This document shows positions 2,583 through 21,549 of a DNA stretch of 24,886 bases, one piece after another. Every line of letters starts with the position of its first letter. Within the stretch, counting starts at the first letter, position 1. The translations under genes were made by a program, and so were the position numbers. The stretch comes from an uncultured Candidatus Saccharibacteria bacterium (lineage in GTDB: Bacteria > Patescibacteriota > Minisyncoccia > Minisyncoccales > CG1-02-41-26): assembly GCA_964409215.1 (NCBI GenBank), contig CAYPCL010000002.1, positions 1 to 24,886 on the forward strand, in the 5' to 3' direction. The notes beneath the pieces are model-generated. The model saw only the letters and a list, made by a program, of their open reading frames with translations. It did not search any database and was not told where the DNA came from.

Positions 2583-3238
2583 TTTAAAGCTTTTAAAATA
2601 TCATCAAAAACATCTTTAATCGGCTGTTCGCCGTCAATTTCTATCAATTTTCCTTTTTCCCGATAGTAGTCAATTACCTTGATAACTCTTTTATCAAAAA
2701 AATCAAGGCGGTTCTTTATGGAATTTGGATTATCATCCTCCCTGGCTACAAGTTCTCCTCCGCATTTATCACAAACCTTAAGCTTTTTAAAACCCTCAAC
2801 CCAGGGAATCAAACGACCGCATTTTTTGCAAATTCTTCTCTTAGTCAACCTTTCAAAAGCTTCTTTCCGGGAGATATCTATTAAAATTGGATGGAAATTT
2901 TTTTCTTTTCCCAGCCAAACCAAAAAACTATCCAGGACTTTAGCTTCTCCGATTCTCCGGGTTGCCCCGTCAAAAAGAATACCCTGGCCTTCCTTGATAT
3001 TGTAGGATATTTCATGAAGGAGCAGAGCTATTGCCAAATCATCAAAAGGCAAACCTCCTTCATCAATAATTTTGTTAATCTTTTTCCCCGCCAAGGTGTC
3101 TTTTTCGGCCAAATCCCGGAAAAGATCACCAGTGGAAAGATAAAACAAATTACCAAAATGCTCCATTAGAAGCTTGGCTTGAGTTCCCTTCCCGGAACCG
3201 GAACGGCCTATTAGATTGAGACTTATTGTTCCTGGCAT
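2579..3238 (-). CDS. adk: Adenylate kinase (zinc-lid type) with divergent NMP-site motifs
   Basis: P-loop GRSGSGKGTQ, STGDLFR, lid RRICKKC...CDKCGG, REDD, RL; located between secY and map. Confidence 0.9.
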   Translation of the reverse strand: MPGTISLNLIGRSGSGKGTQAKLLMEHFGNLFYLSTGDLFRDLAEKDTLAGKKINKIIDEGGLPFDDLAIALLLHEISYNIKEGQGILFDGATRRIGEAKVLDSFLVWLGKEKNFHPILIDISRKEAFERLTKRRICKKCGRLIPWVEGFKKLKVCDKCGGELVAREDDNPNSIKNRLDFFDKRVIKVIDYYREKGKLIEIDGEQPIKDVFDDILKALK

Positions 3239-3247
3239 CCTGATTGG

Positions 3248-3276
3248 ATTATAGAAGAAAAATTTATAATTTACAA
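3248..3276 (-). promoter_or_regulatory. Sigma70-type internal promoter for adk-map
   Basis: TTGTAA (3276-3271), 17 nt, TATAAT (3253-3248), 9 nt before the adk ATG. Confidence 0.7.
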
Positions 3277-18393: not shown

Positions 18394-18449
18394 TTGAAAA
18401 AAATTCAATTTAATAATAGTATTATAAACATATGTCTAAAGTTTGTAAA
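18394..18449. promoter_or_regulatory. Overlapping divergent promoters for rpmB/tRNAs (+) and the site-2 protease (-)
   Basis: Plus: TTGAAA 18394-18399, 17 nt, TAGTAT 18417-18422. Minus: TTTACA 18449-18444, 17 nt, TATAAT 18426-18421. Confidence 0.6.
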
Positions 18450-18659
18450 ATCTGCGGGAAAGGATCTCGAGTCTTTGGAGTAAGAAAAAAACTCCGGGGC
18501 AAGTATAATCCTACTGCCAAAAAAAGAAAGTATCCCAATCTTCAGTGGCTTCGGGTACCTGAAGATATAAAGCTCAAAAAATACAAACCCTACGCCGGTC
18601 AGAGAATTAAAGCTTGTTCCAAGTGTATTAAAAGACTTTCCTTAAAAAACGGGGTATAG
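18432..18659 (+). CDS. rpmB: 50S ribosomal protein bL28 (zinc-binding form)
   Basis: MSKVCKICGK...KRKYPNLQW...IKACSKCIK. Confidence 0.9.
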   Translation: MSKVCKICGKGSRVFGVRKKLRGKYNPTAKKRKYPNLQWLRVPEDIKLKKYKPYAGQRIKACSKCIKRLSLKNGV

Positions 18660-18723
18660 TGTAATTGGCTAACATACACGCATGGGGTGCGTGCGATTCT
18701 CGGTTCAAGTCCGGGTACCCCGA
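18650..18723 (+). tRNA. tRNA-Pro(GGG), CCA not encoded
   Basis: Acceptor CGGGGUA/UACCCCG, A73, D-loop GG, anticodon arm CACGC-AUGGGGU-GCGUG, T-loop UUCAAGU. C1-G72 and A73 fit Pro identity. Confidence 0.95.
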
Positions 18724-18729
18724 ATAATT

Positions 18730-18802
18730 GCGGGTGTCGTATAATGGCTTATTATTTCTCCCTTCCAAGGAGAAGATGGCGGTTCGAATCCGCTCACCCG
18801 CT
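18730..18802 (+). tRNA. tRNA-Gly(TCC), CCA not encoded
   Basis: Acceptor GCGGGUG/CACCCGC, U73, anticodon arm UCUCC-CUUCCAA-GGAGA, T-loop UUCGAAU. Confidence 0.95.
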
Positions 18803-19189: not shown

Positions 19190-20335
19190 ATGCATATCAT
19201 CTGCCATTATGCCGAAATAGGCCTTAAAAAGGGCAAGAGGAGGTTTTTTGAAGAAAAACTGGTTGAGAATATCAAATCGACTTTAAAAGCGGAGTCTTTT
19301 AAGCAGGTTAAAAGAATCTCCGGCCGGATTATTATTGAATTTGAATCGGACATCTCTCCTTCTCAATGGGACAAAATTAGTGTCCTATTAAAAAATGTCT
19401 TTGGAATAAGCCATTTTTCCCTTGCTCAAAGCTTTCAGCCGGAAATAGAAGAAATTAAGAAAAAGGGATTGGAAATTTTAAAAGAAAAGGAATTTAAAAC
19501 CTTTAAAATTGAAACTCAGCGCTCCAATAAGAATTTTCCCCTCACTTCTCCGGAGATAAACCGGCAGATTGGAGAACATGTATTAAATAATCTTAAAAAG
19601 AAAGTGGATTTGGAAAATCCCGATTTAACTCTTTTCATAGAAATAGTTGATAATTATTCTTTTATTTATTCGGAAAAGATAAAAGGCCAAGGAGGTTTGC
19701 CGGTCGGCAGTTCGGGAAAAGCCCTCTGCCTCCTCTCCGGAGGAATTGACTCTCCCTTGGCCGCTTATTTGGCTATGAAAAGAGGGATTAAATTGGAGCT
19801 TATCCATCTTTACTTTGACAAATCTTCAATAAAGAAAGTCAAGGAAATAGCTAAAATCCTCAGTAAATTCCAAAAAAAGATAAAACTTCATTTGATTCCC
19901 TTCAAGGAGATTCAAGAAGAGATAGCCCGAAAACTTCCCTTGGAGACAAGATGCCTCCACTGTAAGAGAATGATGCTGAAAATTGCTCGGGAAATCGGAG
20001 AAAAGGAAGGGATTAAAACAATAATAACCGGGGAGAATATCGGCCAGGTTGCTTCCCAAACTTTGGCTAATTTAAGGACAATTGAATTAGGCAATGATTT
20101 TCTAATCTTAAGGCCCCTCTCTTGCTTTGATAAAAAAACAACCATAGAAAAAACCAAAGAAATAGGAAGTTATGAAAAATCAATTATTAAGGAACTCCCC
20201 TGCCCTATCGTTCCCGAGCATCCTGAAACAAAAAGCTCTCCTGAGAAAATAAGGAGAGAGGAGGAGAAAATAGACCGGGAAAAACTTGTTAAAAAAGCTT
20301 TGGCAGAATCTGAAGACCTCGTTATTATAAGTTAG
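19190..20335 (+). CDS. thiI: tRNA 4-thiouridine(8) synthase ThiI (NFLD-THUMP-PP-loop, no rhodanese domain)
   Basis: HYAEIGLKKGKRRFFE, THUMP TFKIETQRSNKNF...VDLENPD, GQGGLPVGSSGK, PP-loop LLSGGIDS, TGENIGQVASQT, LRPL. Confidence 0.96.
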   Translation: MHIICHYAEIGLKKGKRRFFEEKLVENIKSTLKAESFKQVKRISGRIIIEFESDISPSQWDKISVLLKNVFGISHFSLAQSFQPEIEEIKKKGLEILKEKEFKTFKIETQRSNKNFPLTSPEINRQIGEHVLNNLKKKVDLENPDLTLFIEIVDNYSFIYSEKIKGQGGLPVGSSGKALCLLSGGIDSPLAAYLAMKRGIKLELIHLYFDKSSIKKVKEIAKILSKFQKKIKLHLIPFKEIQEEIARKLPLETRCLHCKRMMLKIAREIGEKEGIKTIITGENIGQVASQTLANLRTIELGNDFLILRPLSCFDKKTTIEKTKEIGSYEKSIIKELPCPIVPEHPETKSSPEKIRREEEKIDREKLVKKALAESEDLVIIS

Positions 20336-20454
20336 AAATTGTCTCAGTACTGATTCTAAGTGGGTGTCCTCACGTTAAATCAAGTTGATTTAACAAATAT
20401 TGGACTCCCATTTTGAAGGTTTTGTACAGAATATTCTAACTTTAAACGGGGCCA
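20315..20454 (-). ncRNA. ssrS: Probable 6S RNA (compact, ~140 nt)
   Basis: Rod-shaped fold: GGCCCCGUU..AAGUUAGAA / UUCUAACUU..AACGAGGUC, then GUAC/GUAC, central bubble AAAACCUUCAA / AGAAUCA, AAUGGGAGUCC / GGACACCCACUU, and terminal GUUAAAUCA/UGAUUUAAC. A dedicated TTGACA/TATAAT promoter lies upstream. Ends are approximate. Confidence 0.7.
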
Positions 20455-20459
20455 CTTTC

Positions 20460-20489
20460 ATTATATACTCCTTTAAAATCACCTGTCAA
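20460..20489 (-). promoter_or_regulatory. Consensus sigma70 promoter driving the 6S-like RNA
   Basis: TTGACA (20489-20484, inside the last codons of the kinase gene), 18 nt, TATAAT (20465-20460); no ORF follows on this strand. Confidence 0.8.
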
Positions 20490-21549
20490 TCATTAAAACT
20501 TCCCCTAACTGTTTAATCAGGGAAATGACCACCGGCGGAGGCATTAAGCTGTAGCATTGCCTTCCCCGGTCATCTCTGATTTTCCAGGGTTTTTTTTCAG
20601 CTTTTATTTTTCCAAAATCATTAATCTTATAATTGTATTCCGGGGTAATTTCGTAATCATTGACATATTTCAAAGCTTTTTGAACGGGAACAACGTTATT
20701 AAGCATTACTTTGGGAACACCCGACAAGGATAAAACCTTCCTTATAATCTTTTCGTCTTTTTCCAATCTTGATTTAATATTGGCTATCCCCAATTCATCC
20801 CCTTCTTTCTTGACCATTCTCGCTCCTTGGCACCGGGGATTATCGCAAATCAAATAAAATTCCTTTTTTCTTTTATCATAGCCCACTTCTTTGGTCGGCA
20901 GAAGCTTGGTGCTCCGGGAAGTCTGGCACAAGGGGCAGATAACTCTATGTTTTATTCTTTCATTGATAACCGACTCCGGTATGTTTATAAGGACAAAAAC
21001 ATCGGGGTCTTCCCGATAACCTATCAAATCTCTGAAAAAGAGAGAGTAGGAAATTTGATCCATATCCCGGGGAAATCCATCTATAAAAAAAGATTTATCC
21101 TCTCCCCGATCGGCTATCTCCATTTTAACCAGGGCTAAAATCAATTCACTGGGAAGAAGGCTCTTGGTATTTCTCTTTTTAAAAGATTTTATTATTTCCT
21201 TCAGAGGGGTAAATCCCCTATAATTCTTTTCAAGAAAGGAAATGATTTTTTTCTTTTCCTTTCTCTTCTTCATTCTCTTTTCAATGTCCCTGACAATGTC
21301 ACCGACGGAAAGATGTTCTATTTTTTCAGGGTCGACTATTTCTTTGAACATTTTAGCGTAGGTTCCTTTGCCGGAATTCTTTTTGCCTATCATATAGGCG
21401 ATAAAACTATTCTTTTTCAGGTGTTCTCTTAATTTTTCTATTTCCTTCCCGGCTTTCAAATCAAAATAATCCCTTCTCTGGTTTGGATCGGTAAGATCAA
21501 ATTTTTTTGAGATATTATTCAACTTTGTTTTAAAAATTGGAAATTCCAT
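20479..21549 (-). CDS. Enlarged adenylate-kinase-like nucleoside monophosphate kinase (356 aa)
   Basis: P-loop GKKNSGKGT, SVGDIVR, LLPSE, FIDGFPR, Cys lid RVICPLC...ICDNPRC; long N- and C-terminal extensions. Confidence 0.85.
   Translation of the reverse strand: MEFPIFKTKLNNISKKFDLTDPNQRRDYFDLKAGKEIEKLREHLKKNSFIAYMIGKKNSGKGTYAKMFKEIVDPEKIEHLSVGDIVRDIEKRMKKRKEKKKIISFLEKNYRGFTPLKEIIKSFKKRNTKSLLPSELILALVKMEIADRGEDKSFFIDGFPRDMDQISYSLFFRDLIGYREDPDVFVLINIPESVINERIKHRVICPLCQTSRSTKLLPTKEVGYDKRKKEFYLICDNPRCQGARMVKKEGDELGIANIKSRLEKDEKIIRKVLSLSGVPKVMLNNVVPVQKALKYVNDYEITPEYNYKINDFGKIKAEKKPWKIRDDRGRQCYSLMPPPVVISLIKQLGEVLMIDR

Follow-up and report, generated by a model that had tools for sequence, protein, structure and literature searches.

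A candidate gene for a divergent, miniaturised 6S RNA with its own predicted promoter in a Parcubacteria/Nealsonbacteria-like CPR bacterium

The intergenic element described here probably encodes a 6S RNA (ssrS-type) that is both divergent and miniaturised, in a Parcubacteria/Nealsonbacteria-like CPR bacterium, a reading to which we assign a probability of about 0.75 and in which the 6S function is proposed by analogy. 6S RNA is the RNA that switches off RNA polymerase and is regarded as nearly universal in bacteria. No description of a 6S RNA in CPR/Patescibacteria was found in the full-text literature searched. The window, i.e., the whole stretch of DNA analysed (24,886 nucleotides), carries the element between two convergent genes, namely ThiI (19190-20335, plus strand) and an adenylate-kinase-like (ADK-like) ORF (20479-21549, minus strand). 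Homologous elements are present in 56 distinct metagenomic loci, usually directly 3' of the same ADK-like gene, although these loci were collected via the ADK-like protein, which bears on any linkage between the RNA and ADK. The features of the window copy are the following:

20484..20489, minus strand: -35 hexamer TTGACA, within the final codons of the ADK-like ORF; TTGAC(N) occurs in the same place in 49 of the 56 homologous loci
20460..20465, minus strand: -10 hexamer TATAAT, separated from the -35 hexamer by an 18-nt spacer
20313..20455, minus strand: RNA gene, 143 nt by the bounds of the family model (model R1, 83.6 bits, E 1e-16, full length)
20455-20453 (5-7 nt past the -10) and near 20315-20313, minus strand: predicted 5' and 3' ends of the RNA
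20445..20453, minus strand: P1, outer closing stem, 5' strand GGCCCCGUU, pairing with 20315-20323; family helix 1, compensatory changes in 10/10 pairs
20315..20323, minus strand: P1, 3' strand AACGAGGUC, antisense to the final codons of ThiI
20434..20442, minus strand: P2, middle closing stem, 5' strand AAGUUAGAA, pairing with 20329-20337; family helix 2, compensatory changes in 7/7 pairs
20329..20337, minus strand: P2, 3' strand UUCUAACUU, forming a 9-bp helix with AAGUUAGAA
20424..20431, minus strand: P3, inner closing ("downstream") helix, 5' strand UUCUGUAC, pairing with 20343-20350; family helices 3-5, 73-89% paired, with compensatory changes
20343..20350, minus strand: P3, 3' strand GUACUGAG, by fold and family covariation
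20410..20423, minus strand: central bubble, 5' strand AAAACCUUCAAAAU, 14 nt, unpaired at the family level; consensus AC(U)AAAC, then a U-rich run
20351..20361, minus strand: central bubble, 3' strand ACUUAGAAUCA, 11 nt; its leading A (20361) never varies in the family
20402..20409, minus strand: P4, 5' strand GGGAGUCC, pairing with 20362-20369; GGG in 55 of 56 members, inner pairs covary
20362..20369, minus strand: P4, 3' strand GGACACCC, by covariation and conserved bases
20370..20401, minus strand: conserved internal loop (AAUAUU opposite UGA) and apical hairpin P5 (20373-20395); family helix 8, compensatory changes in 9/9 pairs and 96% of cells paired

The RNA appears to be transcribed on its own account. 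An earlier, sequence-only reading had proposed that a consensus TTGACA-18-TATAAT promoter fires into an ORF-free stretch between convergent genes, and this was borne out: the promoter (minus strand, 20489-20460) scores 12/12 and is unique at that score in the 24.9-kb window, against 0.00 in 100 dinucleotide shuffles, and the sole ORF in the RNA stretch is a 23-aa frame without conservation. This 23-codon ORF (MKVAPFKVRIFCTKPSKWESNIC) has its ATG in the -10 box and a Shine-Dalgarno-like AAGGAG upstream, in the window as well as in locus L027. It could be taken for the gene of a small protein, a reading that is hardly credible and is refuted by the absent conservation of the ORF, as the other 54 loci either lack the ATG or, in most cases, have the frame stopped after 1-8 codons. 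No frame is conserved, and the substitutions are compensatory for base pairing rather than codon-like.

Among the 56 homologous loci, 49 have a promoter of at least 9/12 at a fixed distance, 14 of these scoring 12/12. In 44 of 50 promoters of the relatives, 4 nt separate the end of the TAnAAT-type hexamer from model position 1, a distance that would place the transcript start within 1-3 nt of the closing-stem base. Furthermore, a sigma70-type promoter is retained where the RNA is inverted (L080) or set apart from the ADK-like gene by 1.3-1.8 kb (L047, L059), and thus it travels with the RNA. On the same strand, most relatives have a downstream terminator (A-run, hairpin, U-run) or a U-run right after the closing stem, an own Rho-independent terminator being present in many of them. 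No U-run follows the rod in the window, where the 3' 23 nt of the RNA gene overlap the end of ThiI. Taken at the level of sequence, the predicted near-consensus sigma70-type promoter and the own terminators of many relatives indicate that the RNA is probably an autonomous transcription unit. In addition, the promoter alignment is direct evidence, of a comparative kind, that canonical TTGACA/TATAAT promoters are used by these organisms.

The minus-strand RNA (20455..20315) folds into one rod with an MFE of -39.1 kcal/mol (z = -5.3), and none of 200 shuffles folded equally well, in agreement with the single rod that had been drawn by eye. Both helices described at that time, the 9-bp AAGUUAGAA/UUCUAACUU and the GGGAGUCC/GGACACCC pairing, were found, as was the AU-rich terminal hairpin, and the asymmetric central bubble proved real at the family level, with AAAACCUUCAAAAU opposite ACUUAGAAUCA in the window. 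RNAfold places a few extra pairs within the central loop of the window copy, which are not conserved in the family. The same holds for part of the inner stem as first proposed: GGGAGUCC/GGACACCC stands, while its extension (AAU.../...ACUU) is not conserved. In nearly all members the central internal loop comprises 13-16 nt on the 5' side and 9-13 nt on the 3' side. The element is 128-148 nt long, with a mean of 137 nt (43 trimmed copies). Some lineages carry a branched sub-variant with an additional 5' hairpin domain.

Comparison of the relatives strongly supports the fold. Partners are paired in 89.1% of 2147 cells, compared with 40-48% when partners are slid, and compensatory (double) changes were recorded in 39 of 40 pairs. 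The covariation score is 0.572 versus a control maximum of 0.136, and it was reached by none of 500 shuffles. A single A-to-G change in L027 converts the C/A mismatch of P1 into a C-G pair. Sequence conservation peaks in the unpaired bases of the bubble, and over the family GGG is found in 55/56 members, CCC in 54-55/56, A in 56/56, C in 55/56, U in 55/56 and A in 53/56. Relative to a locus whose ThiI is 90% identical and which is present in the samples JGI 3300018080 and SRR6963352, the element shows 3 differences in about 170 nt, against approximately 9% divergence of the flanking coding DNA. By such comparisons, the conservation of the element is far above chance expectation.

An RNA from the plus strand was also considered. 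The plus strand folds better in the window (-45.8 kcal/mol), but this candidate was rejected, since it is contradicted by the orientation of promoter and terminators, by the balance of 226 G-U wobble cells to 86 A-C cells on the promoter strand, and by the model scores, model R1 giving only 26 bits on the opposite strand of the window element.

The genomic context bears on whether the element might merely serve its neighbours. It is syntenic among relatives despite flanking proteins that are only 53-68% identical, and its downstream neighbour varies, with a tRNA in several loci. A contig scan based on ThiI hit distant Bacilli/Mollicutes ThiI loci alone, without any relative of the element, while an exact-protein look-up of the window ThiI found no record. 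In the P0012 locus, ThiI stands in a different context and the element is absent. It is very improbable that the element acts in cis, be it as a bidirectional terminator of the convergent genes, as a 3'-UTR hairpin between them or as an antisense regulator of the 3' end of ThiI. The convergent position, the better plus-strand fold, the 23 nt overlapping the ThiI end and the U-run right after the closing stem in some relatives would all suit such a role, but it is largely refuted by the comparative data. The promoter is conserved at a fixed distance and is kept when the RNA is inverted or displaced (L080, L059, L047), separate terminators lie past the element in many relatives, the downstream neighbour is variable, and G-U cells exceed A-C cells on the promoter strand. 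Moreover, the conserved positions cluster in the unpaired bases of the bubble, for which a terminator has no use. An intrinsic bidirectional terminator was rejected as a candidate on similar grounds, i.e., the lack of a U-run after the window rod, the separate terminator in relatives and the fact that the unpaired bases are the most conserved.

The element is a long, imperfect, intergenic inverted repeat, and one might think of a miniature inverted-repeat mobile element (MITE) or another repeated palindromic element. This can be practically discounted: there is a single copy in the window and one full-length copy per locus, the copies are syntenic, and terminal repeats and target duplications are lacking.

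Concerning the identity of the RNA, Rfam searched at the gathering threshold over the whole window yielded two tRNAs only, and at E <= 10 the window element (421-nt and 158-nt searches) gave no RF00013 match, only noise. Two homologues, on the other hand, aligned with RF00013 over its full length (model 1-187) on the promoter strand, namely L098 with 33.1 bits (E 9.5e-4) and L044 with 25.8 bits (E 0.051), these E-values being already multiplied by 4227 families. Approximately 23 further homologues (14 loci/63 kb, 6 more loci, and L040 and L057 singly) had no match to RF00013, and its gathering score of 46.4 bits was reached by no member among the ~26 homologues tested. The expectation that 6S would be recognised by Rfam at relaxed thresholds thus failed for the window copy and was realised, below threshold, in only two of about 26 homologues. 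The broader proposal of a compact 6S RNA in a CPR organism fared better, in that the independent rod with its bubble stands and the comparative data strengthen it, although the support is indirect and that from Rfam is sub-threshold and limited to the same two homologues. Search filters and the indel pattern probably matter for the misses, yet the scores are clearly low. In a reciprocal test with the filters of model R1 off, the E. coli ssrS in L113 was missed, the sole target there being a distant gammaproteobacterial 6S RNA. Since any rod-shaped covariance model gives a rod-shaped RNA some score, 33 bits would indicate a similar architecture and motif and leave descent unproven.

The likeness to 6S RNA is clearest at the bubble. 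The upper-case consensus of RF00013, 'auaauaGGGagccc ... gggcaCCCACCUggaA', corresponds to the near-invariant GGG, CCCAC, U and A of the family at equivalent structural places, and the bases at the bubble edges (...GGGag... / ...caCCCACCUggaA... in Rfam) agree with the window, which reads UGGGAGUCC ... GGACACCCACUUAGAA. The rod of 6S RNA is likewise present, with a closing stem, an enlarged central internal loop, and an apical stem with a terminal loop. The length differs, as the window copy has 143 nt and the family 128-148 nt versus about 160-200 nt for 6S RNA (PMC8414754). From GGG to CCC the apical arm measures 42 nt, as opposed to ~67 in the Rfam consensus, and contains one conserved internal loop. 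The family is clearly shorter than the usual 6S RNA and is missed at the curated Rfam threshold.

These observations leave some room for a lineage-specific structured small RNA that resembles 6S in shape only and has a function other than sequestration, e.g., as a scaffold or regulator tied to the ADK-like gene. Most members, including the window copy, are unscored by RF00013, they are shorter than known 6S RNAs, and they are tightly linked to one protein family, though the loci were collected via that protein. Furthermore, the apical internal-loop sequence CAAUAUUUG.../...CGUGAGG is conserved in the family and could be a specific protein-binding site. We nevertheless consider such an RNA unlikely, given that the invariant bases occupy the bubble edges, which are the best-conserved part of 6S, and agree with the Rfam consensus, and that two full-length RF00013 alignments were obtained with strand and coordinates as expected. 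The element was matched by no other Rfam family. A bacterial small SRP RNA was rejected, as no SRP family appeared at E <= 10 and the apical sequence lacks the domain IV motif with its GNRA-type tetraloop and conserved symmetric/asymmetric loops, and a Y RNA reading was rejected as well.

Accepting the 6S reading, the CPR RNA can be compared with several known systems. It is like RF00013, and especially the Firmicutes-type 6S-1 consensus, in its rod, its large central bubble and the GGG...CCC helix that borders this bubble apically. The 3' bubble strand opens with caCCCAC(C/U)UGGAA and the 5' bubble strand is A/U-rich, again as in RF00013. A strong housekeeping promoter of its own, here predicted, and a possible rearrangement between the 3' bubble and the freed closing strand may be further points in common with 6S RNA. 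The CPR RNA is unlike RF00013 in that its apical arm is ~25 nt and its closing arm 5-10 nt shorter, and in its distinct conserved apical internal loop. The E. coli 6S gene is linked to ygfA/fau, whereas the gene of the CPR RNA is linked to an ADK-like gene. At ~160 nt, the 6S RNA of Aquifex aeolicus is picked up by the standard model, while the CPR family is shorter and escapes it. In both cases, a 6S RNA would have been kept in a strongly reduced genome (for A. aeolicus, cited in PMC8414754 and PMC8876501). The CPR RNA shows no sequence or size resemblance to Ms1 of Actinobacteria. Ms1 measures ~300 nt, binds core RNAP rather than holoenzyme and is devoid of the GGG/CCCAC bubble signature. 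Ms1, which is 6S-related and binds RNA polymerase (PMC9130861), is nonetheless also rod-shaped and also escapes the 6S model. Finally, the engineered B. subtilis variants 6S78 and 6S82cp share with the CPR RNA a central bubble, short helical arms and, as predicted for the CPR RNA, a reduced or absent '-35' region, although they are artificial, 78-82 nt long and bind ~10-fold more weakly, whereas the CPR RNA is natural, ~140 nt long and carries a conserved apical loop and hairpin (PMC8876501).

If the RNA works like E. coli 6S and B. subtilis 6S-1, its bubble would mimic an open promoter, so that the housekeeping holoenzyme would bind the RNA instead of DNA promoters. The 3' bubble strand (CCCACUU-R-R-A, in which the A after CCC is invariant) would mimic the -10/non-template strand, with the 5' strand standing in for the template; in 6S-1, the 3'-CB is the -10 mimic (PMC8876501). 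The sequence-only reading had assigned the -10 mimic to UAGAAU, an assignment that is not supported as a conserved feature, as 34 of 56 relatives have G at the second position, and the A shared by all members (56/56) belongs to CCCAC, three bases farther upstream. Upon a rise in NTPs, the polymerase would copy the 5' bubble and the inner closing helix into a short pRNA, which, judged from promoter geometry only, may start at C20424 and would read 5'-GUACAGAAUAUUCU. A start at GUUUUGUAC, as previously suggested, has no better support than this C, which is conserved and marks the edge of the closing helix. Synthesis of the pRNA would unwind P3, and its freed 3' strand could then anneal to the 3' side of the bubble (CUUAG/CUGAG in the window), leading to release of the enzyme. 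When the 5' strand is masked, 31 of 56 members form a hairpin of 4 bp or more in which the 3' bubble joins the freed 3' strand. The local MFE of this release hairpin is -2.95 kcal/mol versus -1.25 kcal/mol for shuffled bubbles (Wilcoxon p ~3e-5, the sequences being related). A rearrangement of the pRNA-release type would thus be possible according to this modelling.

As the apical arm is ~25 nt shorter than the Rfam consensus, contacts that mimic the -35 region would be reduced, or moved to the conserved internal loop and the terminal hairpin. A 78-nt 6S-1 without the '-35' arm is known to retain binding of sigma-A RNAP, pRNA templating and release, albeit with an affinity that is ~10-fold lower (PMC8876501). 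A bolder and rather doubtful proposal is that the family represents a natural 'minimal' 6S without most of the -35-mimic arm, in which capture rests almost wholly on the bubble and the new apical loop and which would be the smallest natural 6S design, or else a new class that has converged on a 6S-like bubble for another partner.

If the 6S reading is true, the 56-sequence alignment and the model could serve to extend the 6S family and to annotate it in CPR genomes. A natural 6S RNA of 128-148 nt would also test which parts of the open-promoter mimic are dispensable, in comparison with the engineered 78-nt 6S-1. The global dormancy-type control put forward in the sequence-only reading is an extrapolation. 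What the 6S reading itself would mean is that ultra-small, regulator-poor episymbionts retain a global RNA-based brake on housekeeping transcription.

The gap separating the convergent genes for ThiI and an adenylate-kinase-like (ADK-like) protein is occupied by an element of about 140 nt that, judged from sequence, is a minus-strand RNA gene. Its components and the two flanking genes are as follows.

19190-20335, plus strand: tRNA 4-thiouridine synthase ThiI (Pfam ThiI, 2.7e-61)
20479-21549, minus strand: ADK-like protein, 356 aa (weak PF00406/AAA_17 match)
20489-20484, minus strand: -35 box TTGACA of a sigma70-type promoter (12/12 together with the -10 box)
20465-20460, minus strand: -10 box TATAAT, 18 nt after TTGACA
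20453-20445 (5') and 20323-20315 (3'), minus strand: P1, outer closing stem
20442-20434 (5') and 20337-20329 (3'), minus strand: P2, middle closing stem
20431-20424 (5') and 20350-20343 (3'), minus strand: P3, inner closing stem
20423-20410 (5', AAAACCUUCAAAAU) and 20361-20351 (3', ACUUAGAAUCA), minus strand: central bubble
20409-20402 (5', GGGAGUCC) and 20369-20362 (3', GGACACCC), minus strand: P4
AAUAUU (5' strand) opposite UGA (3' strand), minus strand: internal loop
20395-20373, minus strand: P5, single apical hairpin

The remaining window genes include a ribosomal-protein/EF-G/EF-Tu cluster, and assignment of the window to the CPR is reasonable because the best named relatives of its proteins are Candidatus Nealsonbacteria, Parcubacteria and Patescibacteria. 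Two tRNA genes lie at 18650-18723 and 18730-18802 (plus strand), preceded by a 75-aa ORF (18432-18659, plus strand) sharing 10 nt with the first tRNA. This ORF is also called in the related loci L026-L030, where it has 72-75 aa and no Pfam hit. Besides a long N-terminal extension, the ADK-like protein has a conserved CxxC...CxxC block. Matches 58-92% identical to it occur in 254 metagenome stretches, and this RNA nearly always follows, a linkage that partly reflects the fetching of loci via that protein. A terminator-like hairpin of 11 pairs (20500-20525, minus strand) is located within the 3' end of its ORF, shortly before the RNA promoter, and carries several substitutions in a close relative.

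The TTGACA-18-TATAAT promoter recognized in the sequence-only reading is the only 12/12 match in the window and occurred in none of 100 dinucleotide shuffles; its -35 box falls in the last codons of the ADK-like ORF, and the RNA is expected to start 5-7 nt downstream of the -10 box. A scan of metagenomes with the ADK-like protein alignment yielded 80 loci, and a covariance model of the family (R1), built on 43 trimmed copies of 128-148 nt (mean 137), detected a single full-length copy in each of 56 distinct loci (68-115 bits); no second copy is present in the window. A promoter matching at 9/12 or better was found in 49 of the 56 loci (12/12 in 14 of these), and it stays with the RNA in loci where the orientation is reversed (L080) or the distance to the ADK-like gene is 1.3-1.8 kb (L047, L059). 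Of the 50 best promoters, 44 have the end of their -10 box 4 nt ahead of model position 1, so transcription would begin within 1-3 nt of the rod's first base pair. Promoter spacers fall into two length classes, 16 and 18 nt, and repeatedly hold TTAAAG(A/G)G immediately before the -10 box (window 20466-20483; L061, L071, L072, L076, L099 and L103, among others), possibly a sub-element that promoters of this clade conserve. On the strand of the RNA, most relatives have either a separate predicted A-run/hairpin/U-run terminator 5-45 nt past the rod or a U-run abutting the closing stem. No clear terminator follows the RNA in the window lineage, where the predicted 3' end runs into the last seven codons and stop codon of ThiI; the 3' closing strand (20313-20335) is antisense to these codons and the TAG (20333-20335). 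A 23-codon ORF (MKVAPFKVRIFCTKPSKWESNIC; 20394-20462, minus strand), with its ATG within the -10 box and AAGGAG 6 nt upstream, was judged spurious, as it occurs in the window and L027 alone and lacks conservation in the other 54 loci. No reading frame is conserved across the homologous loci.

The minus-strand RNA folds into the single rod that had been drawn by eye, with an MFE of -39.1 kcal/mol (z = -5.3) that none of 200 shuffles equalled. The complementary strand also folds (-45.8 kcal/mol), and thus the fold alone cannot settle the strand. Among paired cells there are 226 G-U against 86 A-C combinations, the bias to be expected if it is the promoter strand that folds, and R1 scores 83.6 bits (E 1e-16) for 20313-20455 on the minus strand versus 26 bits on the opposite strand. 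In the closest relative (L026/L027, a 304-kb contig with ThiI 90% identical and unchanged gene order), promoter and RNA differ at 3 positions in about 170 nt, while the flanking coding DNA is about 9% divergent; an A-to-G change there mends a C/A mismatch of the RNA stem and turns a ThiI Leu codon into Pro. Distant relatives (L028, L029/L030; ThiI 53-55% identical) keep the gap, TTGACA, TATAAT and blocks of the RNA, and their closing stem is altered by compensatory substitutions. Covariation, the check proposed for this fold, was borne out: in a model-based alignment of 56 sequences that is itself fitted to the structure, standard pairs fill 89.1% of cells over 40 pairs (40-48% with partners slid 1-3 columns), and 39 of the 40 pairs change on both sides. 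Covariation scores 0.572, a value that none of 500 shuffles attains, whereas slid controls do not exceed 0.136. The outer stem, GGG/CCC helix and apical hairpin, with compensatory changes, also emerged from an independent MAFFT/RNAalifold run.

Conservation among the 56 members is highest at the bubble edges, not in the stems: GGG in 55, and CCC in 54-55, followed by A (56), C (55), U (45), U (55), R, R and A (53). At the same helix/bubble junction, the consensus of the Rfam 6S family (RF00013) has '...auaauaGGGagccc...' in its 5' strand and '...gggcaCCCACCUggaA...' in its 3' strand, and the conserved bases of the element follow this 6S pattern. The relaxed-threshold search suggested earlier gave no 6S match for the window copy at E <= 10, nor for the other homologues tested, except that RF00013 aligned full length (1-187), on the promoter strand, to the element in L098 (1450-1588; 33.1 bits, E 9.5e-4) and L044 (1310-1448; 25.8 bits, E 0.051), with a factor of 4227 families included in E and both scores under the gathering score of 46.4 bits. 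Reciprocally, R1 does not detect E. coli ssrS. The curated model does not admit the element, but architecture and signature bases agree with 6S. The main rival, which we regard as unlikely, is a lineage-specific RNA with a mere resemblance to 6S. There was no credible match to any other Rfam family; sub-threshold hits of the 'rimP leader' and 'Thr leader' kind (<=43.8 bits; L045:1671-1780, L063:1372-1462, L055:1457-1556) fall on downstream A-run/hairpin/U-run terminators and are generic terminator look-alikes, not leaders. We believe, at roughly three chances in four, that the element is a true 6S RNA in miniaturised form.

The 3' bubble strand of 6S RNA is a -10 mimic (PMC8876501). The UAGAAU mimic proposed for the window is not conserved as such: at its second position, where a -10 box has its critical A, 34 of 56 members carry G. 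If the invariant A20361 is the -11 equivalent, counting over the eleven 3'-bubble bases would put +1 on G20350:C20424, the first P3 pair, and the pRNA would then begin with G opposite the conserved C20424, as 5'-GUACAGAAUAUUCU. The start at GUUUUGUAC put forward previously, templated from C20419/20418, is possible, and no observation favours it. When the 5' strand of P2/P3 was masked in imitation of a pRNA hybrid, 31 of the 56 members showed pairing of 4 bp or more between the 3' bubble and the freed 3' strand (CUUAG with CUGAG in the window). These local folds are more stable, at -2.95 kcal/mol, than those with shuffled bubbles, at -1.25 kcal/mol; since the sequences are phylogenetically related, the resemblance of these predicted folds to the E. 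coli-type release hairpin is no more than suggestive.

Known 6S RNAs, which occur in nearly all bacteria, are rods of 160-200 nt whose internal loop is enlarged (PMC8414754). The total length here is under that range; the apical arm spans 42 nt between GGG and CCC, compared to about 67 in the Rfam consensus, and the closing arm is reduced by 5-10 nt. The bubble measures 13-16 nt (5') and 9-13 nt (3') across the family. Also unlike known 6S RNAs, a sequence-conserved internal loop (CAAUAUUUG / CGUGAGG) lies about 8 bp above the bubble, and five loci carry an extra hairpin domain of 75-85 nt beside the 5' end (L057:3095-3167, L083:~1490-1565, L086:~3110-3189, L055:~1255-1341, L094:~3165-3251). 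This hairpin, GGCRGUGCYC ... AAUUUCUAAC, has no Rfam match; the promoter is shifted 75-85 nt upstream, and an additional outer stem, AUGGC/GCCAU, completes a three-way junction.

In the full-text literature no paper was found tying 6S RNA to CPR, Patescibacteria or Parcubacteria, the one co-occurrence being incidental, and the family would be overlooked by standard annotation because every member scores under the Rfam threshold. Even when cut down to 78 nt and deprived of the '-35' arm, 6S-1 binds sigma-A RNAP, if about 10-fold less tightly, serves as a pRNA template and is released again (PMC8876501), and a natural 6S RNA of 140 nt is therefore mechanistically plausible by analogy. The family is probably a new, miniaturised variant of 6S RNA.
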